A stretch of 64,000 nt of DNA from a virus: positions 3,003 to 67,002 of the IMG/VR virus record IMGVR_UViG_3300046455_000317. The stretch is one strand, 5' to 3'. Below, piece by piece: positions 18,111-54,403 of this stretch (within the stretch, counting starts at the first letter, position 1; the number at the start of each line of letters is the position of its first letter). The position numbers and the translations under genes were made by a program. Under the pieces are notes generated by a model, which saw only the letters and a program-made list of their open reading frames with translations, made no database searches and was not told where the DNA came from.

Positions 18111-18121
18111 AGTAGAGCCGG

Positions 18122-18452: not shown

Positions 18453-18538
18453 GGGCACAGCCCGGTCAGCTGATTGGAAGATGCCCTGTAGGGTAGCCCA
18501 GCATTTCCTCCAATCATCATTCCTAGGTGTGCCGGCAA
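18453..18538. repeat. Palindromic intergenic element, copy 2 (core reversed)
   Basis: GGCACAGC..TGATTGGA..TGCCCTGTAGGGTAGCCCAGCAT..TCCAATCATCATTCCTAGGTGTGCCGGCAA. Confidence 0.85.
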
Positions 18539-18627
18539 AGCGGGCACGCGGTTCTCGCGGCCATCCCTCCGGCATCCGGGTGGGCTCCAGCCGAAGTCAG
18601 CGCCGACAGTCGAGGTGGACGTGGAAG

Positions 18628-18694
18628 CCTAGATGTAGGCTAGGCCACCCGGAGGTGGCCTAGATGTAGGACGGGCCACCCGAAGGTGGCCCGT
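18628..18694. repeat. Tandem GC hairpins with CCTAGATGTAGG direct repeats
   Basis: TAGGCCACC-CGGA-GGTGGCCTA and ACGGGCCACC-CGAA-GGTGGCCCGT (UUCG loop on the minus strand); no U-tract. Confidence 0.7.
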
Positions 18695-33712: not shown

Positions 33713-33713
33713 C

Positions 33714-34709
33714 ATGGCTATCGAACGTGCCTATGCTGGAGCCTCCAACGCCATGGCGTTTCGGCTCCTCAATTCTGGGCTCAGCGTCCCAGAGCTTCGT
33801 GCGGCGTCACCTCTCCCAGACAACGCCCAGCGCATCGTCGATCAGACGGTCGCTGAAGTGGGTCTGGAGCGGTTGGTCGTCGCTGGCGATATCATCGCCG
33901 CTGGGCTGACCTTCCCGCTGACTGACCCACTGTCGGTCATGGAAGTCGCCTGGGAATCGGTCTCCAAGACGGGTGGGGCGCAGCGCACGATGAACCCATC
34001 GGCTCGTGGAGAGAACCAGCTGCCGGACCGCAAGATGGCGACCATCCCGGTCTATCTCACGACTGACGACTTCAGCATGGGAATCCGCACGCTGAAGATG
34101 TCGGAGCGCGTGGGGATGCCGCTGGATACCACCCTCGTGGCGTCGGCCACCCGGCGTGTCAACGAAGCCATCGAAGACGCGACCATCAACGGTGCCGGCA
34201 TCACCATCGGCGCTGGGAAGACGCCTGGGCTCCTGAATGCGCCCAACGCCAACCAGTACCAGCTGACCGCCGATTGGACCGGCGCCAACGTCATCGGGAC
34301 CACGGGACCGGCGATGGTGAACGACATCCTCAACATGGTGGGAATCGAGCAGGCCGATAAGCACTTTGGGCCTTACACCGTGTATGTCGGCACCAAGGCC
34401 GGTCTGGGCGTCTCTGGGGACTACAAAGCCAACACGACCGACACGATCCTGAATCGGATTCTCCAGATTCCGGGCATCGCGGCGGTGAAGGTGGCGGACC
34501 AGTTCCCGAACAACCCCACCGGACCCCAGGTGGCGATGGTGCAGCTCACCTCTGACGTGGTCGACATGATTACCGGCCAGGCGCCCACGGTCATCCCGTG
34601 GACGTCCAACGACGGCTTCACGCTGTTCTGGCTCGTCATGGCGATCATGATTCCGCGTTTCCGCGCGGACTACGATGGCAATTCTGGGATTGTCATTGGG
34701 AACAAGTAG
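33714..34709 (+). CDS. Major capsid protein (HK97 fold, encapsulin-like family)
   Basis: Position, size, strong codon bias; DFSMGIRTL..PLDTT..ATRRVNEAIE..GLLNAPN. Confidence 0.88.
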   Translation: MAIERAYAGASNAMAFRLLNSGLSVPELRAASPLPDNAQRIVDQTVAEVGLERLVVAGDIIAAGLTFPLTDPLSVMEVAWESVSKTGGAQRTMNPSARGENQLPDRKMATIPVYLTTDDFSMGIRTLKMSERVGMPLDTTLVASATRRVNEAIEDATINGAGITIGAGKTPGLLNAPNANQYQLTADWTGANVIGTTGPAMVNDILNMVGIEQADKHFGPYTVYVGTKAGLGVSGDYKANTTDTILNRILQIPGIAAVKVADQFPNNPTGPQVAMVQLTSDVVDMITGQAPTVIPWTSNDGFTLFWLVMAIMIPRFRADYDGNSGIVIGNK

Positions 34710-36549: not shown

Positions 36550-37076
36550 TGGGGACAATCTCCGGCAGGTCGCCGCACCATAAGGTCTTGGGAGAGTTGG
36601 CGCGCGAAGCGGTTTCATATCTTGAAGTTGGCGTCCAAGATGGGGACTCGGTGGCGGCAGTCGTCAATCAAAATCCGAGGATTGCTCTCACGCTGTGCGA
36701 TACTTGGGGACCGCATCATGGGGGAACTGATCGAAAGTCGCATAGCCATGTTGAGGAACGGCTCGTTGGGATGGGCCACGAAGGGTCACGAGTCTACTTG
36801 GATGGATCGTCCCACGATCTCATCCCAAAGCTTCCCAAGGGCGGGTTTGACCTCGTCCACATCGATGCCGACCACTCCTTTGAGGGTTGCAAAGCGGACC
36901 TCAGGAACTGTTGGCCCTTGACCAACAAATTCTTAGTCGTCCACGACATCTTCTTTCGTGAAGTGCGAGACGCGGTGTTCCAGTTCCTCGAATGGAATAT
37001 GCCGGACATCGCCGCCATCGTGATGTCGGCCTACGACCATGGGACAATCGTCATCGAAAGGTTTGGGAGAGCCTGA
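36549..37076 (+). CDS. Class I SAM methyltransferase (Methyltransf_24-like)
   Basis: YLEVGVQDGDS, FDLVHIDADHS, LVVHD. Confidence 0.88.
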   Translation: MGTISGRSPHHKVLGELAREAVSYLEVGVQDGDSVAAVVNQNPRIALTLCDTWGPHHGGTDRKSHSHVEERLVGMGHEGSRVYLDGSSHDLIPKLPKGGFDLVHIDADHSFEGCKADLRNCWPLTNKFLVVHDIFFREVRDAVFQFLEWNMPDIAAIVMSAYDHGTIVIERFGRA

Positions 37077-38290
37077 TGCGGCGTTTGCTCTGGATTGGCG
37101 ATGCGGCGTGCCCTAGCGGTTTCGCCAAGGGCACCCACGGTGTGCTTGACTACCTCGATTATCGCGCCAATCCCGCGAACCCAAACCCATGGGATGTGAC
37201 GGTCTTGGGTATCAACTATCGGGGTGACCCCCATGAATACCCATACCCAATCTTTGCTGCTGGTGCTGGTGGGGACGGCTTTGGGATTGGTCGCACGGTT
37301 TGGATGTGCGATCACGTGCTTCCTACGGCGATTGCTATCCAACAGGACCCATGGAACTTCCCGGCGTATCTCAACCTTCTCCAGACGATCCCAGAGTACA
37401 AGGATGTTCCTGTCGTCGGTTTTGTGGCTGTCGATGGGCTCAACTGTCGCGGGATGGACCTCGAAGGGTTGAGATTGGCCGTCTTCTGGACCCAGTTTGG
37501 GAAGGAACAGGCTGTCCTTGGTGGGTATACAGGCCCATCCGCTGTGGTTCCGCTTGGGGTGGACCTGTCGGTTTACACCCCAGGAAACCAACAGGAAGCC
37601 CGGCGCGAGATGGGTTTCCCAGAGAAGATGGCGAATGCCTTTGTGGTTGGGAATGTGAATCGGAACCAGCCCAGGAAACGGCTGGACCTTACCATTCGGT
37701 ATTTCGCAGAGTTCTGGAAGTCGATGGACCGGCCGGCCAACGTGTTCCTGTACCTCCACGTGGCGCCGACTGGGGACAACGGCTACAACGTCAAGCAGCT
37801 GTGCCAATACTATGGGATACTCTCCCAACTGGTCCTCATGGAGCCGTCTGCGTGGTATGGGGAGTCTGAGGAGCGAATGGTTCAAACCTATCGCACCTTT
37901 GACCTCCAGGTAACCACGACCCAAGGCGAGGGTGATGGCCTGACGACCAAGGAGGGCATGGCCTGCGGAATCCCGCAGATTGTCCCAGAGTGGGCGGCAC
38001 TTGGGGAGTGGGCGAAAGGCTATGCCGTCACGGTCCCATGTACCTCGACAGCCGCGACGATTGGCCGCGCCAACGCGATTGGGGGCATTCCGGATGAAGC
38101 CATCTTCGTCCAGCGTCTCCGGAACCTGTATGGGAACCGGGCGATGCGGATCGCGGTGGCGGAGAAGTGTTTGGAGTGCGTCGCCCAACCTCAGTATCGT
38201 TGGGAAGCGGTTGGGCGTGGGTTTGCTGATGCCCTCGATGCGGAGCTTGTCCCCAGACAGATTTCTCTCCTCCAGGAGCAAGAGGCGTGA
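37076..38290 (+). CDS. Glycosyltransferase (GT-B, GT4-like)
   Basis: LLWIGD..SGF, VPLGVD, GNVNRNQPRKRLD, GEGDGL..KEGMACGIPQI. Confidence 0.9.
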   Translation: MRRLLWIGDAACPSGFAKGTHGVLDYLDYRANPANPNPWDVTVLGINYRGDPHEYPYPIFAAGAGGDGFGIGRTVWMCDHVLPTAIAIQQDPWNFPAYLNLLQTIPEYKDVPVVGFVAVDGLNCRGMDLEGLRLAVFWTQFGKEQAVLGGYTGPSAVVPLGVDLSVYTPGNQQEARREMGFPEKMANAFVVGNVNRNQPRKRLDLTIRYFAEFWKSMDRPANVFLYLHVAPTGDNGYNVKQLCQYYGILSQLVLMEPSAWYGESEERMVQTYRTFDLQVTTTQGEGDGLTTKEGMACGIPQIVPEWAALGEWAKGYAVTVPCTSTAATIGRANAIGGIPDEAIFVQRLRNLYGNRAMRIAVAEKCLECVAQPQYRWEAVGRGFADALDAELVPRQISLLQEQEA

Positions 38291-40438: not shown

Positions 40439-43400
40439 ATGGATATAGGAACACTCACCGGCTACATCATCCTCGAAGACAATCTGACGCCAGCGTTGGC
40501 GACAGCCCAGAAGAGTCTTGAGACGTTTGGGAGAGGCGCGAAGGATGCTGGTATTGCCCTTACAGCCGGTCTTTCAGTTCCCATCGCTGCGGTTGGGGGA
40601 TTCGCGATCAAAGCCGCCATAGACTTTGAGTCGTCTTTCGCCGGTGTTCGTAAGACAGTGGATGGCGCCGTCGATGACTTTGGGAATCTTACCAAAGTGG
40701 GCGCGGATTTACAGAATGCATTCCGAGGGTTAGCCAAGGAAATCCCGGTCAGCGTCAATGAGCTCAACGCCATCGCGGAAGCTGGCGGACAGTTAGGCGT
40801 CAAGAGCCAAGATCTGGTTTTGTTTACCCGCACCATGGCCGACATGGGCGTGGCTACCAACCTTTCCTCCGATCAAGCGGCGACCAGTCTCGCCCAGATC
40901 GCGAACATTATTAACAACGAAGCCGGTCCCCAGTATGATCGTTTGGGCGCCACCGTTGTTGACTTAGGTAACAAATCGGCCGCGACAGAATCTGATATCG
41001 TTGAATTTGGTCTCCGTCTGGCAGGCGCTGGTAAAGTCGCCGGCATGTCTGAGCCGGAAATCTTGGGGATTGGTTCTGCCCTCGCGTCCGTGGGTATCAA
41101 CGCTGAGGCCGGTGGCTCTGCCTTCTCCAAGGTAATGATCCAACTGGCGACGGCAGCCGACCAAGGTGGCGCCAAGCTTGAGAGCTTTGCGACAGTCGCT
41201 GGGGTCTCCGCCGATACGTTCAAGAAGAAGTTTGAGACCGATGCCGCTGGCGCTCTCACGATGTTCGTCCAGGGTCTGGGGAAGGTTGAGGCCCAAGGTG
41301 GGAGTCTCTTTGGGACCCTCGAACAGTTGGGGATCACCGAGCAGCGCATGCGAGATGCCCTCCTCCGGACGGCTGGGGCGGGTGACCTTCTCGCCCAGTC
41401 GATCAAGGATGGGCGAGCCGCTTGGGAGGCGAACACTGCACTAACCAAGGAAGCGGAACAACGCTACAAGACCACTGAGTCCCAACTCCAGTTACTTGGG
41501 AATAAACTGAACGATGTAGCCATCACCCTTGGGTCAGCGTTACTCCCCATCGTCATTGATCTCGTGAAAGCGTTGGAGCCGTTGATCGCGCATCTGGCGG
41601 ATGCAGCCAGGTGGTTCGCGGATTTACCTGCGCCTATCAAATACGTCACCATCGGCTTCCTCGCCATCGTGGCGGCGATTGGGCCCATGTTGATTGGCCT
41701 GGGGTTGATGGCGAGCGGTTGGGCGGCGATTATCCCACTCTTTGCCGCTGGGACGGTTGGGGGCACTGCCCTCGCTGGAACGATGACGTTCCTGAATTCC
41801 ACGCTCATCCCACTCGCTGTGACGTTGGCGCCGTTTGTCCTCGCCTTGGGCGCGCTCTACTACGCGGTCAACCAACTCATCCCAGCGTTCCATGGGCTCG
41901 CCACGGCTTGGGCGGAAGGAAAGACATGGGAGTTCCTGAGTGCGAGGGATGAAGACAACTTCGTCCGTCGTTGGTTGGGGATGTCTACCGGGGTGAAGAC
42001 GGCGAAGGATGGGATTCTCCCAGATATCAAAGCCATCAATGAGGCTGTTGCGGGATTGGCCGACCAACGGACCTCGGTCAACCCAGATCTTTCCAAACTG
42101 GAAAGTGCGCTCAAGAAGGCGGCTGACGAGGGTGAACTCACCGCGCCCATCATCGAGGATGTTGGGAATGCGATGAAGGCCGCTGGGCTTCACGCCAACA
42201 AGTCAACGCCCTATCTCTTGGCGGTTGCGGATCAATTGGCGGCTGTCGCGGCCGCAGGGAAACCAGCCGCGAAAGTGGTGGCGGAGACGGTAACTGAGGA
42301 ACAGAAAGCGGCCAAGGCAGCTGCTGATATGCAGCGCCAATTGGAGACACTCCGCAAAGAGGGACTGACTCCACTTACTGCCGCCCAGAAGACGTACATT
42401 ACTGAAGCCAAGAGGCTTGGGGATGAAGAATCCAACATCGCCAAGGTCACTGGCGTAAGTGAGCGTGCGATTCGTGCTTACTTGGACGCCAGTAAGGAAG
42501 CCGCCAAGAAGACTGAGGAGCACGCGAAGGCTGTCGCCAAGATGACGTCAGCCTATGAGGGGACCAACAAAGAACTCCATGAGTTGCCTAACTCCGTGCG
42601 TTGGGTGATTGAGGCCCAACTCAAAGCGGGCAAGAGTGTCGCGGATGTTGCCAAAGCCTACAACTTGACTGAGGAGACGGTCCAGGCTGTTGGCGATCAG
42701 ATGAAGATGCTGATTGACCTCCACGCGTTTGAGGCGTCGGCTTTGGGTATCACTGAGAGCACCCTTGGGAAAGTGAGTCGAGCAGAAGAGGAATACCTGA
42801 AGCTCTTGGGGCAGAACGTCACGCTGTATGCGACGTTGTCCCCAGCGCATCAGAAGGAAATTGATTTCTACCGGACCCAAACAAAAGCCACGGAAGCTCA
42901 GATCGCGGCGGCCATCGACCGGCTGCGCGTCTTGGAGTTGTTGGCGAGGGTGGAGAACGCGAGCAATGCTGGCTTACTGAGTGCGTTGACGTCCATAGGT
43001 GAGAAGGTCAACGTGATGGATACGTTGACCCTCGGCCAACAGGCTTACGTCCGAGAGGTTAAGAACACGACTGACGCCGTCGATGGGTGGGCGAGTGCGA
43101 TGTCTGCGGTTGGTGGAGCGTTCCCAGATACCTCGAAGTTTGGGAAAGCGATTGCGGGCATCGGCCAAGCGTTTACTGTCGCATCCGCGAGCCAGAAAGC
43201 GGCTGAGCGTGTCGCCAACAGATACAATGCGACTCGTGGGGTGAATCCTCCTGCGGGAGCCGATTGGGGTTATGGGAGCGTTGCGTTTGGCCCTGGTTCG
43301 ACACCTGGGGAGCGAGCCGGTGCTGTCGGACAGATCGCGTCGTCGTCTATCAGCGGTTATTACAACGCTCGTGGGGCACTCGACCAGGCGAGCCGCGTGG

Positions 43401-46264
43401 ATCGCACGCTTGGGATGGCTCAAACTGGCGCCCAAGTTGGTAGCGCCTTCGGTCCCCAAGGTGCCCTCATCGGGATGGGCGTTGGTGCGATTATTGGCGC
43501 GGTCTCTGAAGACCCAGGATGGGCGAAGGCCCAACACGCCGTTGCAGAAGCCTTTGGCGTTGAGATTTCAGAGGAATTAGGTCGCACGATTGCGGACAGT
43601 GCGGAGGAACTTGGAGGGAGGATCTACGGCATCTGGGATAACTTGGGAGCGATTATTTCAGAAGCTGGTGGGCTGGATGATGCGAATCTTGGTGACTATG
43701 AGGGCCATCTCATAGGGATGATGGAGGCTGTTAAGCAAGGAAACTTGGACGCGGCCATCGCCGTGGATACGCTGGATGAGACCTGGTCCCAGTTCGTGGA
43801 GGCTGGTACGTCTGACGTCGGTGTACTAAACCAGGCCTTGGTAAGTATCATCGACTACATGAATGAATTGGGCGTAGAAAGTCAAGCGGTCACTGCGTAT
43901 CTGGGAGCGCAGGGCCAAGCTGGTGCAAGTGCGTTTGGCGATGCGATGACCGTTGGGGGTGGCGCCATAACGGAACGGCTCCGACTGACGACCGAACTCC
44001 AAGTGGCGGAATCGGATCTCATGTTAGCGCGAGAGGATGGGAGCCAACGGTCCAAGGAGCAAGCGGAGGAGCTTGAAGCCAAGATTGAGGGTTTGAACGA
44101 GCAATTGGCCGTTCAAAACGGTATCATAGCAGCGACAGCCTTATCGTCCCAGGCAGCGGCGGATGCTATCGCGGCTGGAGTCGCGGCTGACTTCGACGCG
44201 ATGATAAACTCTGGGATGTCCTTCCATGACGCGGTGGAAGCGATTCAGCCAGCCATCGAGGGACTCCAACTTCAGATAACAGAGGCCGGTCTTACTGGGA
44301 GTGAGGTCTTTGATGTCCTCCAGGAGCAAGTGGCGCTCTACTCTGACGCTGTCGCTGGGCCCGCACTGACCGCCGTAGATGGTTTGTCTGCTGGGATGGT
44401 TAACCTCAGTAACATGGGGCAATTGAACCAAACGTCGTTTGCTGCACTGTCCGGGCAAATCGGATCCACGTTTGAATCGCTGGTTGCCCAAGGCAACGAT
44501 AGCGAAGTGGTAATGATTGGAATGAAGGATTCTATCCAACGGATGTGGGAGGAGCAACAGGAGTTTGGCTTCCATACGGACGAAGCGACCCAGGCGTTGA
44601 TCGACGAAGCTGTCGCCCAAGGGGTTGTGGGTGAGAAGCATAAGTCTATCTCAGACCAGATGTTGGACGCCACGAATCGTATCGCGGGTGCTATGGAAGG
44701 TCTTGCGAGAGCGATGGGCGTTGACATCCCAAATGCAGCGAACAATGCCGCGTATACGACGCGTGGCGCCGCTGACTCCATGGAGAGGGACTGGAACCGC
44801 GTCCATGATGCCGCGACTGGGGCCGCTGAAGGACACTCACCCTCTGGGATCAAGCAAGTCACCGTTCGCACTGCTGAAGCCCAACACGCGGTTGAAGTCG
44901 CGGCAGGCCAGATGATTGCGGCGTTCGGCCAGATCTTCCTCGTAGTGACTGGCTTGGGCGATGCGGTAATGGATACGTTTGAGAGCGTCCACCAACAGAT
45001 CGTGGATTACCAGAACGTCGATGCTGCGATTAGGTCATTGACCGTCGCCCAAAAGAACTTCATCGAGCTTGCTTTGGTATCTGGGGTATCAATTGCAGAT
45101 ATCGCTGCATTGCTTGGTACGAGCACTATTGCGATTCAGTCTTATGTGGACGCCAATAAGAAGGCAGCTGCTGCAGTGGCAGCGACAGCGGCAGCGACCG
45201 CTCAACACGCCCAGGTGATTGCAGATATCAACCAAGCCATAGCGGACCATGCGGATGCCGCAAATGCTATGGCAAGACTCACCGCCGGGCAGCGAAGTTT
45301 CATCGACAGTGCGATTGCCGCTGGCGTCTCAGTGAGTACGCTCGCTGGGGCATTAGGCACAACTGTTGAGGCCATTAGTCTCTATGTGGCCGCCCAGAAG
45401 GCAGCCGCTGACGCGGCTGATGCAACGGCTGCAGCGACCGCCAGGCACGTGGAGGTGGTCGAGGGCATTATCAAGGCCGTGGCAAACTACAAGGGCGCAG
45501 CCGATGAGATGGCGAAGCTCACCGCTGACCAACAGATTTTCATTACTGATGCCCTCCAGGCTGGGGTCTCGGTCAGTTCCCTCGCGGAAGCGTTGGGGAC
45601 AACGGTTGACGCTATCAACCTCTATGTGGCCGCCCAGAAAGCGGCAGCGGATGCCTCGAAAGCGACTGAGAAGGCGGCATTGGATGCAGCAGCTGCGGCT
45701 GCCAAGGAAGCCCAGAAGATTACGGACATTAACACCGCCATAGCGCAGAACAAAGGTGCTGCGGATGAGGCCGCGAAGTTCACGGAGGACCAGCGCACCT
45801 TCATCAAGGATGCCGTGGACGCGGGTGTCTCTGTAGCCGCTCTGGCTGACGTGATGGATACGACAACGTATGCGATCCAATACTTCATCGACTCCCAGAG
45901 GAAGATAACTGGCGCCCAGGAACCGACCATCGCACCGCCGCTGACTGGGTCCGAGGCATTTGAGCGTTGGCGAGAAGACTACAGCAGAAGTGTGGCGTCA
46001 CCCGTGGAATACTATGCGACTGGCGCGGATGTTATTCCATTCCCCAGCCGTGGGACGGATACCGTGCCCGCCATGTTGACCCCAGGCGAGGGTGTTCTCA
46101 CCGTCGAACAGAACAAAGAATACCACCAGACCATCGAGGGTCCGTCCAACCAGGAAGTCGTGGACGCCGTTAATGGGCTCCGCGTAGACATGACGACTAA
46201 GATGCCTCGCGCGTTGGCGCGCTCGCTCCATACCGGGCTTGTTGGGCTGAGGACGGCGTCATAG
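40439..46264 (+). CDS. Tape measure protein (1941 aa)
   Basis: TP901-type N-terminal domain (FESSFAGVRKT), Ala/Gly-rich, hydrophobic segments, C-terminal GTDTVPAMLTPGE. Confidence 0.93.
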   Translation: MDIGTLTGYIILEDNLTPALATAQKSLETFGRGAKDAGIALTAGLSVPIAAVGGFAIKAAIDFESSFAGVRKTVDGAVDDFGNLTKVGADLQNAFRGLAKEIPVSVNELNAIAEAGGQLGVKSQDLVLFTRTMADMGVATNLSSDQAATSLAQIANIINNEAGPQYDRLGATVVDLGNKSAATESDIVEFGLRLAGAGKVAGMSEPEILGIGSALASVGINAEAGGSAFSKVMIQLATAADQGGAKLESFATVAGVSADTFKKKFETDAAGALTMFVQGLGKVEAQGGSLFGTLEQLGITEQRMRDALLRTAGAGDLLAQSIKDGRAAWEANTALTKEAEQRYKTTESQLQLLGNKLNDVAITLGSALLPIVIDLVKALEPLIAHLADAARWFADLPAPIKYVTIGFLAIVAAIGPMLIGLGLMASGWAAIIPLFAAGTVGGTALAGTMTFLNSTLIPLAVTLAPFVLALGALYYAVNQLIPAFHGLATAWAEGKTWEFLSARDEDNFVRRWLGMSTGVKTAKDGILPDIKAINEAVAGLADQRTSVNPDLSKLESALKKAADEGELTAPIIEDVGNAMKAAGLHANKSTPYLLAVADQLAAVAAAGKPAAKVVAETVTEEQKAAKAAADMQRQLETLRKEGLTPLTAAQKTYITEAKRLGDEESNIAKVTGVSERAIRAYLDASKEAAKKTEEHAKAVAKMTSAYEGTNKELHELPNSVRWVIEAQLKAGKSVADVAKAYNLTEETVQAVGDQMKMLIDLHAFEASALGITESTLGKVSRAEEEYLKLLGQNVTLYATLSPAHQKEIDFYRTQTKATEAQIAAAIDRLRVLELLARVENASNAGLLSALTSIGEKVNVMDTLTLGQQAYVREVKNTTDAVDGWASAMSAVGGAFPDTSKFGKAIAGIGQAFTVASASQKAAERVANRYNATRGVNPPAGADWGYGSVAFGPGSTPGERAGAVGQIASSSISGYYNARGALDQASRVDRTLGMAQTGAQVGSAFGPQGALIGMGVGAIIGAVSEDPGWAKAQHAVAEAFGVEISEELGRTIADSAEELGGRIYGIWDNLGAIISEAGGLDDANLGDYEGHLIGMMEAVKQGNLDAAIAVDTLDETWSQFVEAGTSDVGVLNQALVSIIDYMNELGVESQAVTAYLGAQGQAGASAFGDAMTVGGGAITERLRLTTELQVAESDLMLAREDGSQRSKEQAEELEAKIEGLNEQLAVQNGIIAATALSSQAAADAIAAGVAADFDAMINSGMSFHDAVEAIQPAIEGLQLQITEAGLTGSEVFDVLQEQVALYSDAVAGPALTAVDGLSAGMVNLSNMGQLNQTSFAALSGQIGSTFESLVAQGNDSEVVMIGMKDSIQRMWEEQQEFGFHTDEATQALIDEAVAQGVVGEKHKSISDQMLDATNRIAGAMEGLARAMGVDIPNAANNAAYTTRGAADSMERDWNRVHDAATGAAEGHSPSGIKQVTVRTAEAQHAVEVAAGQMIAAFGQIFLVVTGLGDAVMDTFESVHQQIVDYQNVDAAIRSLTVAQKNFIELALVSGVSIADIAALLGTSTIAIQSYVDANKKAAAAVAATAAATAQHAQVIADINQAIADHADAANAMARLTAGQRSFIDSAIAAGVSVSTLAGALGTTVEAISLYVAAQKAAADAADATAAATARHVEVVEGIIKAVANYKGAADEMAKLTADQQIFITDALQAGVSVSSLAEALGTTVDAINLYVAAQKAAADASKATEKAALDAAAAAAKEAQKITDINTAIAQNKGAADEAAKFTEDQRTFIKDAVDAGVSVAALADVMDTTTYAIQYFIDSQRKITGAQEPTIAPPLTGSEAFERWREDYSRSVASPVEYYATGADVIPFPSRGTDTVPAMLTPGEGVLTVEQNKEYHQTIEGPSNQEVVDAVNGLRVDMTTKMPRALARSLHTGLVGLRTAS

Positions 46265-49200
46265 TGGCTGTTATCCTGAATGTTATTGAAACGACATCGG
46301 TCAATACCTCTGGGGTATTTGGTGCGTGGCTTACAGCGGTTGTATCTGGTGGCCCAGGTCACCCTGGGGACAGACTCATCCTCTATAACACTGATAACAC
46401 CATCCTCGATTGGTTCTTCCTGAATGGGACAAAAGCTCCACCGGCTGCTGGTCTCACCTCGGGCCAGTGTACTTTTGGAAGACCAAGCGCCGCTGGGAAA
46501 TACAAGGTTCAGTTCGTCCACTTCTATCAACCCAGGGCAAACTACCAAGATACGGTTCTTGCGGATGGGGTCACCTATTACTGGCAGATGGACGAAACCT
46601 CTGGGGTCACTGCCGTTGATATGAAGGCCGGTTTGAATGGGACGATTTCCGGTGGCGTCACGCTCGGCACGCCCCATATCTTCCCAGGCACGCACGATAC
46701 CCCAGTGATGACGTTCAATGGGGTGGACGGGCAAATCGTGACTTCCGCTCCCATAACACTACCCTCTGGGGCGGTCACTTTTGAGGCATGGATTCGACAG
46801 ACGAAGACAATTCCCACGCCAACAGTTCGCTATCATTGTATATGGACGAATCGTCGGAGCCCAGGCTTATCAACTACCACTGATGTGTTCTTTGTTGGGA
46901 CCGTGGAATCCAATGGTGTCCTCCACGCCATTCTCGCCTATGGGCCTAACCAATACCAAGGCGTCACCGACATTGGCGACGGTCAGTGGCACCATATCGT
47001 AGTGGCGGTTGCTGCCCCCCAGATGGTGATTTTTGTTGATGGGAAGATCGATGCGAGCCTTGGTACCCTCGCGCGATTGCCGGCAGACCCAGGTGGCCCA
47101 CCGGCGATTGGACGCGATCTCACAAACGCCACGGTTACTCAGTTCAATGGGGCGTTGGGGAAGGTTGCGGTTTACTACTCCAATCTCTCCCACCAGAAAA
47201 TCACCGAGCACGCGGCGTATGGGTTCCAAACGACGGTTCTGGCGGTAGAGACTGTAACCGTCCATCTGAGTGAACCCCAAGTCTGCTTGGAGATGGAGTT
47301 CCTGGGGAAGAACCAGGGCTGGACGATTGTCCGTGATTGGTATGTGAATCCCGGCTTGGTATGGCACCGAGGTCTACCTGGGATTGGGATTCTGGATCTG
47401 ATTGCGGACATTGGAACGCTCCACTTCACCCTCGACAATAGTGAGAAGAACAGCGTTGGGAAAGTCGGGTATTACAGCCCAGACCACGCCAACAAACGGT
47501 ATGGGTTCTACCTGAATATTGGCGTCCGTGTTCGTATCGGGCAGTCCAAACGGTTCACCGGCGTCATCTCCTCGATTGACCCCGTCCCAGGGAAGTTTGG
47601 GACGCGCACCGTCCAAGTTGAGTGTACGGATTGGATGGGTATCGCAGACCGGACACGCATCGAGAATCTCCCAGTTCTGGTAAACAAGCGCGGTGATGAG
47701 GTCTTCCGGACACTTCTCGATTCGCTCCCAGGGTCAGCCCACCCAGATGGAGTTCAAGCCGATTCCAGCCCAGACATTTACCCATACACGTTGGACCGGA
47801 CACGTGACGAACAAACGGTCCTCCGCGATGAGTTGTACCGGCTCTGTACGAGTGGGATGGCCCGCATCTATGTTCTGGGCGATGGGACGCTGGTCTATGA
47901 GAATCGGGGCAGACGCGCCGCCATAACATCGAGCGTTGATACGTTCACTGACTCCCATGGCTTCACCTCTTCCCATGGGCGCGAAGCCATTGTGAACCGG
48001 GCCCAGGCGACCATCCACCCTCGGCTCCCATCAGCGACCGATGTTGTGTTGTACTCGATGCCGCAGCCCATGGAACTCGTGGCGGGAACTCCGCTGACGA
48101 TTATGGGCCCATGGTCTGACCCGGCCAACCCCAATACGCGTGTGGGAGCGGTCAGTCTAGTGTCCCCACTAGTCCGTGGGACCGACTATGTCGCCAACTC
48201 ACTCGCCAATGGGACAGGGACGGATCTTACAGCGTCAGTAGTGATTCTCGCTGGGCTCTCTGGGAACGCGACATCCTTCACGGTCTCACTTCCCCAGGGT
48301 GGGTTTCTCATAAAGCTCCAACAACGTGGGAAGCCGTTGTATGACTACGGCCAAGCGGTTCTCACTTGGGAGGACACAACATCTATCGCCCAGTTCGGAG
48401 TTGCCTCGACCCAGATTGATATGCCCTATACGGCCGACCCAAATCTGGCCTTGGAGGTCGCCCAGTTTACGGTTTACAATGGGGCGTTCCCACTGACGAA
48501 TGTTGCTGGATTCAGTCGTATCGTAGACCTGAAGAATCCCACGGAACTCCAACGGAGTATTGGGCGTCTCATCAGCGACCGGATTAGCATCATTGACCCG
48601 GTGACTGGATTGTCGAAGCCATTCTTCATCAACGCAGTTGATGAGACTATCTCCGAGAATCGAGTCACGACACAGTGGATGTTGACCCCAGGCGATGCGA
48701 CGGGCTATTGGCTCTTGGAAGTCGATGGGTTCACCGAGCTTGATATTACGACGCGTCTGGGATTCGGGCAGATTCTCGGCCATGTGGATATCGTTCACCA
48801 AGATATCCATGGAGACCAAATCCATTACGATTCGATCCACATTGATACCCACTCGGACAACGTCCACGTTGATTTGACGCACGTCGATTTTGTTACCCAT
48901 ACGGACGTTACCGATCACCACGACCAGAGCACCCATGTGGATGATCCCGGGCACTCAGATTCGGTCGCCCATACGGACTACTCCGACCATGTGGATGTGA
49001 CGACCCATGATGACGTAACACACCAAGACGTTCCCCATACGGATGGCGCCCATACCGATATCGCGCAGGTGTATTGGCACACGGACATCCCCCATACGGA
49101 CATCGCCCATTACGATGTCTACTATGATTCGCCGCACCAAGACATCGCTCACCAGGATAGCCACGATGACTGGCGAGATAATGTCCCTGGGATCAATTTC

Positions 49201-49803
49201 CTCGACCATATCGACTGCAATCCGCAATACAATGGAACTGGTAAGTGGCATCTGGATTGTAACTCGAAACCCTATGGGCCGCCCTACGGTGACCCAAATC
49301 CCAACGGGTCATTCCATAACGACCAGAACCATGTGGACGGGCATTACGACCAGAGTGGTCTCCACTACGACCAGAACGATCACGTAGACTACGCGCACCA
49401 AGACGCCCATGGGGACTCCCATGCGGACTACCACGCGGACCAACGCCACGTGGATGAGGGCTATTTCGATCCGCACCAGGACGTGCCTTACCAAGCTGCC
49501 CATGGGGATACACCGCACTATGATGTGCCCCATTACGATACCGCGCAGGTCTATGTGCCCCATACGGATGTGTATCCACATTCCGATAGTGGCGCCCATC
49601 ACGACCAAAACATCCATACGGACACGTCGAACCACTCCGATGCGATCCTCCACGACGATGTAACGTCCCACGCAGACAATAACGTCCACTCGGACACTCC
49701 CCATACCGACATTACCCATGGGGATACGCCGCACCAAGACATAGCCCACTCGGATGTCCCACACCAAGATACGCACCAAGACTTCCATGGAGACTCGAAT
49801 TGA
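46264..49803 (+). CDS. Large tail protein: LamG/ConA-like domain, baseplate/hub-like middle, C-terminal His-x-Asp repeat domain
   Basis: YYWQMDE..TFEAW..DGQWHHIV..FVDG (LamG); LDNS..YSP, GRLISDRISI (tail hub-like); about 55 HxD. Confidence 0.8.
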   Translation: MAVILNVIETTSVNTSGVFGAWLTAVVSGGPGHPGDRLILYNTDNTILDWFFLNGTKAPPAAGLTSGQCTFGRPSAAGKYKVQFVHFYQPRANYQDTVLADGVTYYWQMDETSGVTAVDMKAGLNGTISGGVTLGTPHIFPGTHDTPVMTFNGVDGQIVTSAPITLPSGAVTFEAWIRQTKTIPTPTVRYHCIWTNRRSPGLSTTTDVFFVGTVESNGVLHAILAYGPNQYQGVTDIGDGQWHHIVVAVAAPQMVIFVDGKIDASLGTLARLPADPGGPPAIGRDLTNATVTQFNGALGKVAVYYSNLSHQKITEHAAYGFQTTVLAVETVTVHLSEPQVCLEMEFLGKNQGWTIVRDWYVNPGLVWHRGLPGIGILDLIADIGTLHFTLDNSEKNSVGKVGYYSPDHANKRYGFYLNIGVRVRIGQSKRFTGVISSIDPVPGKFGTRTVQVECTDWMGIADRTRIENLPVLVNKRGDEVFRTLLDSLPGSAHPDGVQADSSPDIYPYTLDRTRDEQTVLRDELYRLCTSGMARIYVLGDGTLVYENRGRRAAITSSVDTFTDSHGFTSSHGREAIVNRAQATIHPRLPSATDVVLYSMPQPMELVAGTPLTIMGPWSDPANPNTRVGAVSLVSPLVRGTDYVANSLANGTGTDLTASVVILAGLSGNATSFTVSLPQGGFLIKLQQRGKPLYDYGQAVLTWEDTTSIAQFGVASTQIDMPYTADPNLALEVAQFTVYNGAFPLTNVAGFSRIVDLKNPTELQRSIGRLISDRISIIDPVTGLSKPFFINAVDETISENRVTTQWMLTPGDATGYWLLEVDGFTELDITTRLGFGQILGHVDIVHQDIHGDQIHYDSIHIDTHSDNVHVDLTHVDFVTHTDVTDHHDQSTHVDDPGHSDSVAHTDYSDHVDVTTHDDVTHQDVPHTDGAHTDIAQVYWHTDIPHTDIAHYDVYYDSPHQDIAHQDSHDDWRDNVPGINFLDHIDCNPQYNGTGKWHLDCNSKPYGPPYGDPNPNGSFHNDQNHVDGHYDQSGLHYDQNDHVDYAHQDAHGDSHADYHADQRHVDEGYFDPHQDVPYQAAHGDTPHYDVPHYDTAQVYVPHTDVYPHSDSGAHHDQNIHTDTSNHSDAILHDDVTSHADNNVHSDTPHTDITHGDTPHQDIAHSDVPHQDTHQDFHGDSN
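48781..49800 (+). repeat. About 55 His-x-Asp tripeptide repeats (mostly 4-6 residue period)
   Basis: Counted by hand from the translation; extra YxD, WxD and FxD variants. Confidence 0.95.
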
Positions 49804-51107
49804 CGATTGAGCTGACTCCCAACGGCGTGGCCTGCAATTTGGACTGTCCCTATTGCTACCAGAAGCCCATGAGAGACGCCGGAAACATCTCCCAAGGTTA
49901 CGACATGGAGAAGATGATCGCCGGGCTCAAACGCGAGGGTGGGCCATTCGCGGTCTTCGGTGGGGAAGCCTTGACGATGCCGCTCGATGATTTGGTCCAA
50001 ATCTTTGAGTTCGGGTATAAGACCTATGGGTCCAACGGCGTCCAGACGAATGGGACGCTGATTACTGAGGAACACTTGGACGTGTTCCAGAAATACAAAG
50101 TCCACGTGGGACTCTCCATCGATGGCCCAGACGAATTGAACGACAGCCGATGGGTCAAAGACCTTCCCACGACGCGAGAAGCCACGGCCAAGAGCCATGC
50201 GGCGCTCCAAGCTCTCGTGAAGCGGAAGCAATCTCCAAGTATTATCGTCACCCTCTACCGTGGGAATGCCGTGGGGCAGCGCTTGGACCGGCTCATTACC
50301 TGGTTCAAGGAGCTTGACCGTATGGGCGTGCGAAACGTCCGTCTCCATCTCCTCGAAGTGGAGAACCGCGAAGTGGCGGAGACGATGGCGATGACGACAG
50401 AGGAGAATATCACGGCGCTGATGCGCCTCTATGAGTTCCAGAGGAAGACCAAGATCAACTTTGACCTCTTTGGGGAGATTGCCCGGCTCCTCCAAGCCAA
50501 CGATGACGCGGTAACGTGTACGTGGAACGCGTGCGACCCATACACGACATCCGCCGTCCGTGGGGTCAGCGGGCAAGGTGAGTCGTCCAACTGTGGGCGA
50601 ACCAACAAAGAAGGAATCAATTGGCAGAAAGCCAACACGCCTGGGTTTGAGCGGCAGGTCGCGCTTTACAACACGCCCCAGGAAGATCTGGGGTGCAAAG
50701 GGTGCCGGTTCTTCTTCGCCTGTAAGGGCCAATGCCCTGGGACGGCGGAGGGTGGTGACTGGCGGAACCGAAGCGAGCACTGCGGCATCTGGATGGCGTT
50801 GTTCGAGCGCATCGAGGGAGATATGATTGGGCTTGGCCAACAGCCTGTCTCCCGCGCGGAGTGGCTTCCCAAGCTCGAACGGATTATGGTTGATACCTGG
50901 GACAGCGGCCGGAACATAACCATCAGGGAAGCGATGCATCGTCTCAACGGCTCCCCATGCGCTGAGACCGGCGATGGGGGCAACCGGCCCCATGGCGACC
51001 ATTGGGATGCTCCGGAAGGCGCGTCCCACTCTGATGGGATATGGGATGTCCATGGGGACAAAGGCACCACAGTCCACGGCGACTCTGGGAGAGAAGACAA
51101 TGCGTGA
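49800..51107 (+). CDS. Radical SAM/SPASM maturase with C-terminal HxD tail
   Basis: CNLDCPYC, FGGEAL, QTNGTL, SIDGP; SPASM Cys: CTWNAC..NC..CKGCRFFFACKGQC..HC; ends with HGD, HWD, HSD, HGD, HGD. Confidence 0.92.
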   Translation: MTIELTPNGVACNLDCPYCYQKPMRDAGNISQGYDMEKMIAGLKREGGPFAVFGGEALTMPLDDLVQIFEFGYKTYGSNGVQTNGTLITEEHLDVFQKYKVHVGLSIDGPDELNDSRWVKDLPTTREATAKSHAALQALVKRKQSPSIIVTLYRGNAVGQRLDRLITWFKELDRMGVRNVRLHLLEVENREVAETMAMTTEENITALMRLYEFQRKTKINFDLFGEIARLLQANDDAVTCTWNACDPYTTSAVRGVSGQGESSNCGRTNKEGINWQKANTPGFERQVALYNTPQEDLGCKGCRFFFACKGQCPGTAEGGDWRNRSEHCGIWMALFERIEGDMIGLGQQPVSRAEWLPKLERIMVDTWDSGRNITIREAMHRLNGSPCAETGDGGNRPHGDHWDAPEGASHSDGIWDVHGDKGTTVHGDSGREDNA

Positions 51108-52218
51108 TTGGACGCGGATTATCTGGGTGAGCGCCAGAGCACGCGCTGTCTGGGAACCCAGGCTCACCCTCATCCAGAAGGCGTGGCTCCAAGTCGAGGT
51201 GGATAGTGTCCTCCTTGGGCTGCGCCCAGCGGGTCTTGTCTTCGGCCAACCCACGGTTGCGGGTCTTCCCATAACGCCAGTGGCTCCGAATCGCTATGCG
51301 ATTGGCCCAGCGGCAGCGGATCTCGTCATGGCGTTCCGCCAGAGTAACAATCAACTCATTGGAGAACTCCTTGGGTATCCTCCATGCTGCCGCGACTTCT
51401 TTGACCGCACCTGGGGCCTGGGACTCCTTGATACTACGGCGCAGATGGAAGGAGATGGGAATGGACCGCTGGACTGCAATATTCTTGGTCGGTGGTTGGG
51501 TGTGCGCTTCATTATGCATCTACCATGCAGTTGGACGTGCGAGCATACCATCGTCTGTGCCGAGCGTTGGAAGCCCTTGTGGCCCAGAGAGGCTCTCCAA
51601 TGGGCCACTGAGATACTCTCTTGGCCCGCTCAATGGTCCGCTCGAAATGGAATCGCTGAGATCACCTTCCCAGTCTGTAAGATGTCTACCCGGACAACGC
51701 CTGGTGAGACGGCGATTATTCGACGACATGGGATATCCCCAGAGGAAGCCGCGACGGGCGTTCAGTTCCCATTCAATGAGCCACGCCGACGATCCCAAGT
51801 CGAGCCATTGATCCAACTCACTGACCCCGCCAAGGCCAATGGGTTCTCCTCCCTCGAAGCAATGACTGCCGCCCATGCAATGGTCCTCGAAGAATTGGAG
51901 ATGTCGCCGCCCCAAGGGTTGACGGTAGACCTTGGGTGTGGGAACGGTCGGTTAATGCGACAGATTGGGAAGAAATTCACGGTCCCAGTTCTGGGCGTTG
52001 AGGTGGACCCAAGCCGCGCCCAAGGCGCTGCCGATATCCGTTTGACGAACCTGGAAGCCTTGGATACACTTCCCCACGATGCCGACACCCTCGTGGTCTC
52101 CATGCGGCGGTTCGAGGAGATTCCAGAACTGGAACGTTGGGCGGCTTCCCATGCCCGGCAAGTGTTGGTCTACAGTTACGATCCACCGATGTTTGCTGAG
52201 ATGAAGCGAGGACAGTAA
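51100..52218 (+). CDS. Cys-rich (DUF483-like) domain fused to class I methyltransferase
   Basis: GELLGYPPCC..FF, HLPCSWTC; C-terminal VDLGCGNG, VLGVEVD; start at MRDWTR. Confidence 0.7.
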   Translation: MRDWTRIIWVSARARAVWEPRLTLIQKAWLQVEVDSVLLGLRPAGLVFGQPTVAGLPITPVAPNRYAIGPAAADLVMAFRQSNNQLIGELLGYPPCCRDFFDRTWGLGLLDTTAQMEGDGNGPLDCNILGRWLGVRFIMHLPCSWTCEHTIVCAERWKPLWPREALQWATEILSWPAQWSARNGIAEITFPVCKMSTRTTPGETAIIRRHGISPEEAATGVQFPFNEPRRRSQVEPLIQLTDPAKANGFSSLEAMTAAHAMVLEELEMSPPQGLTVDLGCGNGRLMRQIGKKFTVPVLGVEVDPSRAQGAADIRLTNLEALDTLPHDADTLVVSMRRFEEIPELERWAASHARQVLVYSYDPPMFAEMKRGQ

Positions 52219-52700
52219 TGGCGAGTTGGCCTGCACGAACGTGGGTTCCAGCGGAACGTGTGACAGCGGGCATGATGAATGGGGTGCGAGACCAACTCAA
52301 TGAACTCCATTCATTCGGTCAGTGGCTCGACCAACCGTTCAATGCGGCCGATTATGGGGCGAGTGCTGGCGCGACATGGACTCTAGGTCTGGCAGCGATT
52401 CTCAGAAATCGCTATACCATTATCCAGAAAACGTTGATTTGGAACTTCTACGTTTCGTGGTTTTCCGGGTCCAATAATCTCATCGGTGCTCCCAGTACGC
52501 TCACGATCAAACTCCCTGGGAACTGTACCTGCCCTGGGAATATCATTATGCCTACGGCCTACAACATCGATGGCGGAGCACGAGTTGATGTTGACGCGAG
52601 TCCCAACGGGGCCACCTGTTCGTTCACGAAAAGAAATGGGAGCAACTTCACGGCCGGTTCTCCTGGGATAATTGGGACATTGACTTTTGAGATTCTCTAA
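52218..52700 (+). CDS. Short tail fibre / receptor-binding-like protein
   Basis: N-terminal WPARTW..ERVT.GMMNGVRDQLNELH anchor shared with the next gene; beta-rich C-terminus. Confidence 0.7.
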   Translation: MASWPARTWVPAERVTAGMMNGVRDQLNELHSFGQWLDQPFNAADYGASAGATWTLGLAAILRNRYTIIQKTLIWNFYVSWFSGSNNLIGAPSTLTIKLPGNCTCPGNIIMPTAYNIDGGARVDVDASPNGATCSFTKRNGSNFTAGSPGIIGTLTFEIL

Positions 52701-54403
52701 TGGCTGACGAACCACGCAAGAGTCTCTTTGAGACCCAGCGGGATTTTGTTCGCCAACAGGCGGAGGTTTCACCCTTCGCGGCGAACTGGCCTGCGCGGAC
52801 CTGGATGCCTGGGGAGCGTGTTACCTCTGGGATGATGAATGGCGTCCGAGACCAGCTCAACGAACTCCATAACACGGTTGGTGGACTCGATGCAACCAAC
52901 GTCGCCTATAAGAACCAGGCGAACGTTTTCACAGTGAACCAGGTCCTCAACAATGCTGCACTTTTCATCCAGGGTAGTAATCCCAGTCTCTACCTGTATG
53001 ATCCTACCCAGCCAGTAAACCTTCGTAACTTCCGCCTCATGAACCAAACCCAGTTGCTCCGGATCTACGCCCAGGATGATGGGGAGAGTGGGTTTGTAAA
53101 CGCGATGTCGCTGTCTCGCTCAGGACAGTTAATGGTGCGAGGAACGATTCAGATTGGTAAAGCGGACATTATCAGTCCAACCGTCCCAGGTCTTCGGAAC
53201 ACCGACAACCGATTGGATATTGTGCTTGGGGACCAAACCAACTGGGCGCCAGTGCAAGCGCTGAGTTACTATGCCGTGGGTGTCGGAAACAGCTTTGCAG
53301 ATCTGACTGTCCGTGGGGCGACGAACTTCCAGAGTAACATCTCTGTCTCCAATGGCGCGGTGATCTCCCAGGGCCCAGTGTATCCTGGCTTTGTTGATAC
53401 TGGTGCGGCGCAGGTATCGTACTACATTGGCGCCCATACCGGCTATGCTGGCCTCTATACCAATGCGAGTTTGACCGCCCAAGGTGAACTGTACGCAATT
53501 GGAAACATTTTCAGTAACAGCCCGGTCTACCCTGGCCGCATTGATACGGGATGGACCAAGCAAACGAGTCTGTATCTTGGGTCCCATGGGAGCTATGGGC
53601 TCTACTCTAACACGGGCCTCTATCTGGAAGGCCCAGTGTGGATGTCTTCCTTCGCGTCTCGTGGCCCTGGGACCATCGCTGGGAATCTAACAATTACAAC
53701 GGGCGGCGCAAGTATCACCGGCACCCTCGTGGTAAATACTGTCGTGGTTAATGTGGGTCCACTGACCGTGGCGACTGGTGGGGCAGACATTACGGGTTAC
53801 TCATACGTCCGGACACCCGGTGGCGCTGGTGATGCTTCGTTGTTCCTCATGAATCCCGCCGCTGGTGGCGCAACCCAAAACTTCCGACTTATGAGCTATG
53901 GGGGTTACTTCCGCGTATGGAATGCGGATAATGGCGCGGAATTACTTCTAGTCCATGGCTCTGGCTCTGTCACTCTCCCTGGTGGTGGTGGGGTGATGAG
54001 CGCCCAAGTGTACTACGAGCGTGGCCGCACTGTCCCCATGGGAGGGCTCACAGCCGTCGATCCAGCTGTCTATATGCACGGCCAAGTGGTTGGTGTAAGT
54101 GGAACGATGATGTATGCCCTCGTGGGCCGCATGATGCACCTGACGTTCAATATCGCAGCCACTTGCGTGACTGGCGGCGGTAACCAGATCAATATGACTA
54201 TTCCATTCCCAGCTGGGCAACTCCCAGCGATTACGTGTCACGTGGGAATCTGGACGGCGCACGCCCAACGTTATTGGCACTCTTCATTCGCGGCTTATGC
54301 AGCCAATCAATATTTCTTGACCTTCTACGATGAGGGTCTGGCTGGATGGCCAGACGGTGCAATCTATCTCTATGGGTCCATCGACATTCCGTTCAGTCCG
54401 TAA
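52700..54403 (+). CDS. Tail fibre protein
   Basis: Same anchor motif; NVFTVNQ; internal repeat PVYPG..DTG..Q.S.Y.G.H..Y.GLY; Gly/Thr-rich beta segments. Confidence 0.8.
   Translation: MADEPRKSLFETQRDFVRQQAEVSPFAANWPARTWMPGERVTSGMMNGVRDQLNELHNTVGGLDATNVAYKNQANVFTVNQVLNNAALFIQGSNPSLYLYDPTQPVNLRNFRLMNQTQLLRIYAQDDGESGFVNAMSLSRSGQLMVRGTIQIGKADIISPTVPGLRNTDNRLDIVLGDQTNWAPVQALSYYAVGVGNSFADLTVRGATNFQSNISVSNGAVISQGPVYPGFVDTGAAQVSYYIGAHTGYAGLYTNASLTAQGELYAIGNIFSNSPVYPGRIDTGWTKQTSLYLGSHGSYGLYSNTGLYLEGPVWMSSFASRGPGTIAGNLTITTGGASITGTLVVNTVVVNVGPLTVATGGADITGYSYVRTPGGAGDASLFLMNPAAGGATQNFRLMSYGGYFRVWNADNGAELLLVHGSGSVTLPGGGGVMSAQVYYERGRTVPMGGLTAVDPAVYMHGQVVGVSGTMMYALVGRMMHLTFNIAATCVTGGGNQINMTIPFPAGQLPAITCHVGIWTAHAQRYWHSSFAAYAANQYFLTFYDEGLAGWPDGAIYLYGSIDIPFSP

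Follow-up and report, generated by a model that had tools for sequence, protein, structure and literature searches.

In a 64,000-nt stretch of viral DNA (IMG/VR record IMGVR_UViG_3300046455_000317, positions 3,003 to 67,002; hereafter the window, to whose positions our coordinates refer), three overlapping genes follow the gene for the tape measure protein. They encode, in order, a protein that ends in a dense array of His-x-Asp (HxD) triplets, a radical S-adenosylmethionine (rSAM) enzyme of the SPASM type, and a protein that joins a Cys-rich DUF483-like domain to a predicted methyltransferase. We propose that these genes constitute a protein-maturation cassette in the tail module of a siphophage, in which a complex of the rSAM/SPASM enzyme and DUF483 acts on [His/Phe]-x-[Asp/Asn] triplets, most likely by triceptide chemistry, and we put the probability of this reading at about 0.6. 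Related loci that were used for comparison are designated by L-numbers. The features on which the proposal depends, all on the forward strand, are as follows.

40439-46264, forward: tape measure protein, 1941 aa (phrog_13339, E 6e-111, plus 13 other tape measure phrogs)
46264-49803, forward: array-bearing tail-module protein, 1179 aa (from the list of open reading frames, ORFs)
46723-47202, forward: Laminin_G_3 or concanavalin-like lectin domain, residues 154-313 of the array protein (PF13385, E 9.9e-15, 55.4 bits vs a cut-off of 27.6)
48754-49800, forward: His-x-Asp array, residues 831-1179 of the array protein (motif counts and shuffle test)
49800-51107, forward: rSAM/SPASM enzyme and proposed maturase, 435 aa, TTG start (PF04055, Cys set, phrog_1802)
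50991-51104, forward: C-terminal tail of the rSAM enzyme, with 5 HxD (sequence reading)
51100-52218, forward: DUF483-like domain (51100-51774) and predicted class I SAM methyltransferase (~51814-52215) (Pfam, homologues, fold model)

The array ORF, the gene for the rSAM/SPASM enzyme and the gene for the DUF483-methyltransferase fusion are translationally coupled. The stop codon of the tape measure gene overlaps by 1 nt the GTG start of the 1179-aa ORF at 46264, the TGA of the array ORF (49801-49803) shares nucleotides with the TTG at 49800 that starts the rSAM gene, and the rSAM stop codon (51105-51107) overlaps the ATG at 51100. These junctions were read directly, and they agree with the overlapping stops and starts that an earlier first-pass annotation of this DNA, made from the sequence alone, had described for the three genes. 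The third ORF was listed from 50974 (414 aa); its homologues start at the ATG at 51100 (372 aa). The database gene call for the enzyme, P0001, is 412 aa long and 100% identical over 95% of the query, 23 aa shorter than our reading. We prefer the TTG start because P0001, if shortened at its N terminus, would be without the CxxxCxxC motif of the enzyme.

The HxD-rich C terminus that the same annotation had assigned to the ORF after the tape measure gene was recovered by counting. The last 349 residues of the protein (831-1179) hold 55 HxD motifs, together with 4 YxD, 1 WxD and 1 FxD, as compared to a single HxD in the first 830 residues. The segment contains 57 His and 67 Asp, and an Asp stands at position +2 after 55 of the 57 His. 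When it was shuffled (n=2000), HxD motifs numbered 10.9 on average (sd 2.7, max 20), which rules out that the array arose from His and Asp falling together by chance. Simple-repeat DNA was likewise ruled out as a source, since the spacers and middle residues vary. The commonest His-to-His spacings were 5 (21 times), 6 (15 times) and 4 (9 times). Two arms of the array flank a non-repeat centre that carries the only 2 Cys of the segment (listed at 49600-49770; residues ~970-1020), and a central non-repeat stretch was also seen in protein phiMa_29 of Thermus phage phiMa and in several relatives. Outside the array, residues ~340-830 share 46-48% identity with array-bearing proteins of viral contigs L004, L005, L007 and L070. 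Residues 1-830 found no PDB or cultured-phage match, and the array protein matched no PHROG tail family. A search of 5.8 billion proteins with the array only returned 12 matches.

The enzyme encoded between the other two genes scored 50.9 bits against the Pfam radical SAM model PF04055 (cut-off 29.5), which places it in the superfamily, and it matched phrog_1802 at E 7e-26. Its CxxxCxxC motif (C12/C16/C19) is nearly invariant in 20 relatives. SPASM enzymes carry a pattern of seven Cys, CX9-15GX4C, a gap, CX2CX5CX3C, a gap, and a final C. The window enzyme has C245-X14-G260-X4-C265, C299-X2-C302-X5-C308-X3-C312 and C328, each of them invariant or almost so among the 20 relatives, and by this pattern it belongs to the SPASM subgroup. 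No match to the Pfam SPASM model was listed for the window enzyme. The full SPASM Cys set claimed by the first-pass annotation is thus present. With the rSAM enzymes of Thermus phages phiMa and Cumys it shares 48.6% identity across 93% of its length.

We compared the enzyme with reference maturase families by means of hidden Markov model (HMM) scores. Its top NCBIfam matches were AmcB, DynA, GrrM/OscB, anSME (anaerobic sulfatase-maturating enzyme) and YhhB, all far under their cut-offs. For the cyclophane maturases, the bit scores and cut-offs were 67.9 and 425 (AmcB), 59.3 and 310 (GrrM/OscB), 56.6 and 445 (YhhB), 40.1 and 450 (XyeB), and 30.7 and 370 (FxsB), which puts the window enzyme outside each of these five curated families. 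The anSME model, TIGR03942, gave 58.9 bits against a cut-off of 349.45, likewise outside that family. AmcB, DynA, GrrM/OscB, YhhB and anSME were also among the best NCBIfam matches in 20 of the 20 members scanned (best E 1e-17 to 1e-23), with E-values of an order similar to those of the window enzyme. The comparison that the first-pass annotation had called for, with triceptide maturases, anSME and the HxsB/HxsC enzymes, therefore came out in part: the first two are among the nearest families, albeit under cut-off, and HxsB/HxsC are missing from the matches listed. Only two enzymes in the PDB were matched by sequence, anSME (E 8.4e-11, residues 5-174; 4K36-4K39) and the triceptide synthase ChlB (E 2e-4). 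Among 6313 candidates scored, 2578 proteins matched the family at E <= 1e-20, and the best 120 all fell below E 1e-137. Because its best HMM matches all lie far below cut-off, the enzyme forms a family of its own, near SPASM enzymes that modify proteins or peptides.

Many of the relatives, including that of L012, have HxD tails of 2-9 motifs at the C terminus of the rSAM enzyme, as does the window enzyme. In L012, on a short contig, this tail is present and an array was not detected. The tail is absent in several relatives with HxD substrates (L089, L113, L152). It may be modified by its own enzyme, act as a docking mimic or bind a metal.

The first-pass annotation had read the third gene as a fusion of a Cys-rich part with a SAM methyltransferase, and both halves were found. 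The window protein scored 19 bits against Pfam DUF483 (PF04467; cut-off 25). Its homologues P0124, P0131, P0175 and P0204 carry precomputed PF04467 assignments, that of L073 scored 24.6 bits, and DUF483 clusters of the Atlas had a score of 0.93 to the window protein. The DUF483-like part covers residues 1-225 and the methyltransferase fold residues ~239-372 of an AlphaFold2 (AF2) model with a predicted local distance difference test score (pLDDT) of 92. With the methyltransferase half, Foldseek returned 340 matches at E <= 0.001 (best E 7.9e-6), and all but one of those listed were SAM-dependent methyltransferases or close kin. Pfam methyltransferase models matched weakly, under their cut-offs; in the DLGCGNG motif, D277, G279 and G281 are invariant. 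The C-terminal half is thus modelled as a class I SAM-dependent methyltransferase fold. The DUF483 domain alone (model pLDDT 91.8) found no fold match in the PDB, the best Foldseek hit having an E of 0.11 and the best VIA-align hit a Z of 4.2 over 87 residues at a root mean square deviation of 3.6, a missing match that does not amount to proof of a new fold. C96, C97, C143 and C147 are invariant among DUF483 homologues and H140 is nearly so, which suggests a metal site in this domain.

The DUF483 domain was detected in 145 of 153 loci, and the 8 misses were all cut on the flank where relatives hold the gene. Over the 153 loci it occurred with the methyltransferase fusion in 92, alone in 53 and fused to the rSAM enzyme in 20. 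Judged by this gene neighbourhood, DUF483 is a near-obligate partner of the rSAM enzyme. The methyltransferase is optional, being absent from the Thermus phages and from the 53 loci. A modelled rSAM-DUF483 complex scored 0.88, vs 0.01 for the best of 3 controls, with at least 42% contact agreement between runs and a partner pLDDT of at least 89; in a calibration that is rough because our own alignments were used, 58 of 80 solved complexes and 2 of 110 mismatched pairs reached this mark of 0.88. In the model, the N-terminal strand and beta-sheet of DUF483 lie against the SPASM region, at rSAM residues 246-298 and 320-323. The modelled complex supports binding between the two proteins.

Related loci were sought in two directions. 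Scans with single proteins gave no matches, and alignment-based scans found loci. The forward test used rSAM relatives alone as bait and covered 3 Thermus phage records, 69 viral loci and 80 genome loci, kept out of 203, from many phyla. A dense array was defined as a same-strand ORF within 4.5 kb of the rSAM gene with at least 8 HxD per 100 aa. Of the 152 loci, 117 had a dense array by this definition; of the 104 with full flanks, 87 did (41 of 45 viral, 46 of 59 from genomes). The array density was reached by 6 of 3265 background ORFs that lay more than 4.5 kb away. The array gene stood upstream of the enzyme gene in 71 cases and downstream in 16. The reverse test was blind to the enzyme and searched viral contigs for a DNA pattern of four HxD at a period of 5, yielding at least 119 loci. 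Of these, 29 had a strong HxD ORF: 21 also contained an rSAM gene, 3 had arrays that look genuine and run off the end of the locus, and 5 were perfect simple tandem repeats. The first-pass annotation had named two outcomes that would have told against it, rSAM homologues mostly without such repeat proteins and HxD tail homologues without the rSAM enzyme; with 87 of 104 loci in the forward direction and 21 of 29 in the reverse direction, neither condition refutes it. The neighbourhoods strongly indicate that the array, the rSAM/SPASM enzyme and the Cys-rich or methyltransferase protein are one widespread module.

phiLo (L002) counted as a miss by the same-strand rule: a stop-to-stop ORF with 101 HxD (phiLo_136) lies 5.8 kb off on the opposite strand. 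In phiLo (7815-8944, 16256-18661), an IS605-type transposase lies directly upstream of the rSAM gene, in the slot that the array gene takes in other phages.

The repeat unit itself varies among the loci. FxN-dominated arrays were found in L033 (2896-3942; 37 FxN and 6 HxD) and L040 (6196-7983; 38 FxN and 2 HxD), HxN-rich arrays in L026 and L051, and mixtures of HxD, HxN and FxN in a single chain in L017 (5650-6924) and L023 (5425-6636). The variant-array proteins share with the Thermus phage proteins an N-terminal triple repeat and a C-terminal end motif (His-x-Asp-Gln-Pro-Val...). Variant arrays fall within particular enzyme clades, those rich in HxN or dominated by FxN in one viral clade. 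Read across these sequences, the repeat unit is [His/Phe]-x-[Asp/Asn] and recurs every 5-6 residues. It follows the logic of a triceptide substrate, with an aromatic residue kept at position 1 and a C-beta methylene beside a carbonyl at position 3: the change from His to Phe retains the aromatic ring and loses metal ligation, and the change from Asp to Asn retains the methylene. It does not follow that of a metal site, since neither Phe nor Asn ligates metals in the manner of His and Asp. Because the methyltransferase also accompanies FxN-dominated arrays, its methyl acceptor does not have to be the ring of His or the carboxylate of Asp.

The proteins that carry the arrays range widely in size. 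In the Acidobacteria, ORFs of 80-95 aa with 9 HxD lie directly upstream of rSAM-DUF483 fusions (L126, 7686-7949; L146, 7664-7948; L149, 7710-7949), which is the classical, minimal layout of a system resembling those for peptides made on ribosomes and then modified post-translationally (RiPPs). HxD proteins of L094 and L152 have N termini that look by eye like signal peptides. The large carriers have 1400-2667 aa. Among them, the 1420-aa protein of the myxobacterial locus L108 (3735-7994) has an HxD array at its C terminus in addition to tachylectin, tectonin and DUF7910 domains, and adjoins the rSAM gene. Pfam was mostly blank on 6 large bacterial array proteins, L108 giving tectonin and tachylectin and another a sub-threshold coiled-coil match. 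The lectin domains of L108 and the Laminin_G_3 domain in the window suggest that arrays are attached to carbohydrate-binding proteins. In phages, the array is located at the end of the baseplate and fibre genes (by the annotation of Cumys) or, in the window, on the protein after the tape measure. With PHROG, the large upstream ORFs of 6 related viral loci were named tape measure in 1 of 6 at E <= 1e-10. The traits specific to the window are an array fused to a lectin-bearing 830-aa protein right after a siphophage tape measure, and the DUF483-methyltransferase fusion.

In the mechanism we propose, the rSAM/SPASM enzyme would work as a holoenzyme with the DUF483 domain protein and would act post-translationally on the C-terminal [His/Phe]-x-[Asp/Asn] triplets of the tail-module protein. 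A 5'-deoxyadenosyl radical would take a hydrogen from the C-beta of residue 3 (Asp or Asn; Asp in the window array), and the C-beta radical would attack the ring of the aromatic residue 1 (for His, probably at its C2), giving a three-residue cyclophane and a loss of 2 Da. Up to 55 such rings would stiffen a flexible segment rich in His and Asp into a rigid ladder, resistant to proteases and heat, on the tail or a fibre, and the fused methyltransferase would be an optional tailoring activity. The ring closure is drawn by analogy, because characterised triceptide synthases make His-C2-to-C-beta links; such cyclophanes are established on HAA, HNR and HTK motifs in the available part of PMC11499958. 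We infer from sequence that the array is the substrate, what type of crosslink it would receive, how many of its sites would be modified and that the protein belongs to the virion. The dozens of His-Asp crosslinks by a triceptide-type rSAM enzyme that the first-pass annotation had envisaged are favoured in that the motif behaves like an aromatic-x-X substrate and the nearest families are cyclophane maturases and anSME; the claim stops short at the curated cut-offs, which the enzyme does not reach. To a broader proposal we give roughly even odds: many phage lineages and various bacteria may build 'polycyclophane ladders' on tail or fibre proteins through rSAM-DUF483, with DUF483 docking on the SPASM region and the HxD tail of the rSAM enzyme serving as a built-in substrate or docking mimic.

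Several observations weigh against maturation of the array by triceptide chemistry. Seventeen of the 104 full-flank loci, phiLo included, have no dense same-strand array, among them a proteobacterial clade of fused enzymes (L080, L102, L106, L112, L117) with no array within 6.5 kb; because of these, the rSAM/DUF483 pair can evidently exist without a nearby array. In two Bacteroidota loci the upstream protein, of 1000 aa, has only sparse HxD. The conservation of motif residues speaks for the proposal, with 66% of motif His and 68% of motif Asp identical across 8 relatives as compared to 14% of middle residues and 11% of spacer residues, but the alignment anchors on His and Asp and inflates the apparent conservation of both. 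The curated maturase scores lie far under cut-off and that of anSME is about equal to them; sequence does not, then, fix the chemistry. The placement of the array protein in the virion or tail tip draws on gene order, the Laminin_G_3 domain and language-model look-alikes; its nearest Atlas clusters are viral, and one, named 'putative tail protein', has a score of 0.94, which is a lead only. Ladders of His and Asp might also bind metals. In the available part of PMC11499958, the characterised motifs HAA, HNR, HTK and YDR include no His motif with Asp at position 3.

It is possible, albeit rather unlikely, that rSAM/DUF483 modifies the array by a different radical chemistry, such as C-alpha epimerisation, C-beta oxidation or hydroxylation of Asp or Asn, a bond of the C-N or C-O type, or connections from one motif to another in place of those inside a triplet. 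The co-occurrence of array and enzyme would apply equally to such a reaction, the enzyme stands outside every characterised family, anSME (a C-beta oxidase) scores like the cyclophane maturases and is the best PDB sequence match, and a DUF483 partner with no solved fold match could bring chemistry foreign to triceptide systems. The strict pairing of an aromatic residue with Asp or Asn at i and i+2, with its exchanges of His for Phe and Asp for Asn, is nevertheless what a link from ring to C-beta needs, and epimerisation or simple oxidation of one residue needs no equally conserved aromatic partner. More doubtful still is an array that functions as a metal-binding fibre or needle, in which His and Asp ligate ions within an oligomer and the rSAM, DUF483 and methyltransferase proteins act elsewhere, as an assembly factor or on another target. 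A content of 57 His and 67 Asp per 349 residues suits metal ligation, His-x-His motifs coordinate iron in the fibre tip of phage T4, and some rSAM/DUF483 pairs are without a nearby array. However, the FxN-dominated arrays of L033 and L040, which cannot ligate metals, fill the same slot beside the same enzyme family, and co-occurrence in both directions is hard to explain without a direct link between array and enzyme. Metal binding and crosslinking are not mutually exclusive.

It is very improbable that the module modifies phage DNA, as is proposed for Cumys and phiMa in the available part of PMC11437467. That text places homologues of the rSAM and DUF483 genes next to deazapurine DNA-modification genes in some cyanobacteria, and a methyltransferase is part of the module in 92 of 153 loci. 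On the other hand, the module lies among tail genes and not replication genes, a repeat protein or peptide is constantly found beside it, and the nearest families of the enzyme act on peptides or proteins. The single array-less cyanobacterial locus that we examined, L073, has no deazapurine cluster within 8 kb; a neighbour there matched tRNA_Me_trans (E 1.5e-70) and, weakly, a QueC domain (E 4.7e-5).

Beyond the cassette, the window is a segment of a siphovirus-type phage genome, with these further features.

26154-27653: large terminase
27647-29149: portal
33549-34709: head protein
52218-54403, forward: two ORFs downstream of the cassette, 160 aa (52218-52700) and 567 aa (52700-54403), possible fibre proteins (translations)

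The two downstream ORFs have a common N-terminal motif of ~30 residues. The first-pass annotation had placed the cassette between a tape measure gene and tail fibre genes. The tape measure assignment held (phrog_13339), and the fibre assignment did not gain ground, as neither downstream ORF matched any Pfam, NCBIfam or PHROG family or any cultured phage, and the 567-aa ORF found no PDB match. Residues ~1515-1830 and ~616-756 of the tape measure protein gave weak PHROG matches to helix-turn-helix (HTH), small-terminase and transcription-regulator families, and the protein is suggested to contain repeated HTH-like units. Distant from the tail module, a collagen-like 'tail fiber protein' of 396 aa lies on the reverse strand at 13061-14251 (phrog_5073, E 5e-54). 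A glycosyltransferase-like gene at 36992-38290 (phrog_2170, E 1.4e-20) lies within the block of structural genes. Together with the rSAM cassette, this gene may give the phage more than one way of modifying its structural proteins.

If the proposed triceptide maturation is correct, a virus particle would be structurally modified by chemistry that is so far known only from small peptide natural products. It would be the first RiPP-type, radical-SAM modification of a virion structural protein, as far as literature searches show, and would carry triceptide chemistry over from short peptides to entire proteins. With 55 sites per chain in the window and ~100 in some relatives, no other ribosomal product so far proposed would be nearly as heavily cyclised. 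DUF483, which archaea have too, would gain a function and represent a new class of obligate rSAM partner. There would also be a natural route to rigid or armoured protein fibres, a matter of interest for protein engineering, for thermostability and for how phages recognise their hosts. Two Thermus phages with the module, Cumys and phiMa, can be grown in culture, and the 88-95-aa peptides of the Acidobacteria are handy minimal substrates. A full-text literature search found nothing on HxD-type arrays as rSAM substrates or on an rSAM-modified phage structural protein, its scope excluding most subscription journals and the supplementary lists of precursors, which may hold HxD-type ones.

The His-Xaa-Ser system pairs HxsA, a His-x-X repeat protein, with the rSAM maturases HxsB and HxsC. 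The first-pass annotation had drawn an analogy to this system that our results do not bear out. The 349-aa array contains 0 HxS motifs and the remainder of the protein 1, which sets the array apart from a His-x-Ser substrate. The window has one rSAM enzyme and a DUF483 protein, unlike the two rSAM enzymes of the Hxs system. Hxs models were absent among the matches listed, these being the best 25 of 49 NCBIfam rows for the window enzyme and the best 25 of 28 for the 20 relatives. The window enzyme is similar to anSME (4K36-4K39) in that both are rSAM/SPASM enzymes, act or would act on a folded or large protein, and abstract or would abstract hydrogen from C-beta, and TIGR03942 matched 20 of 20 members of the family. 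In contrast to anSME targets, the motif of the array offers neither Cys nor Ser at the position to be modified, and Asp or Asn cannot give formylglycine.

The first-pass annotation had stated that no phage system like this one had been described. An 'rSAM module' of Thermus phages Cumys and phiMa is, however, in print (Kolesnik et al., Viruses 2024, PMC11437467). In the available part of that report, DNA modification is proposed for the module, its presence in prophages and DUF483 fusions are noted, and histidine goes unmentioned. Similar to the window, the Thermus module has an unknown protein, an rSAM gene and a DUF483 gene as neighbours in the same three-gene order and strand, it is located at the end of the baseplate and fibre genes, and its array protein has 53 or 54 HxD in 343 aa. 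It differs in that the Thermus array forms a small separate protein that has three repeats at its N terminus, whereas the window array is fused to an 830-aa protein of the tail module after the tape measure, and in that the Thermus DUF483 proteins are without the methyltransferase domain present in the window protein.

The triceptide synthases (HaaB, YhhB, HtkB, XncB, OscB, ChlB) likewise present an rSAM/SPASM enzyme beside a substrate with repeated aromatic-x-X motifs, as do the window enzyme and its 55 HxD. Their models gave 40-68 bits here, vs cut-offs of 310-450. Triceptide substrates are short with few motifs, whereas the array carriers described here extend from 88-aa peptides to proteins of more than 2600 aa with up to ~100 motifs, and pentapeptide ladders of HxD, HxN or FxN are not among the triceptide motifs in the available part of PMC11499958. 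An obligate DUF483 partner is a feature of the present family, and none is described for triceptides. Unlike triceptide synthases, the window enzyme has no N-terminal recognition domain, its CxxxCxxC motif starting at residue 12. The comparison thus characterises the cassette, which is well supported as a maturation cassette by its gene content and conserved neighbourhood, as a probable case of triceptide-like radical SAM maturation at protein scale on a phage structural protein, with an uncharacterised enzyme family and partner domain.

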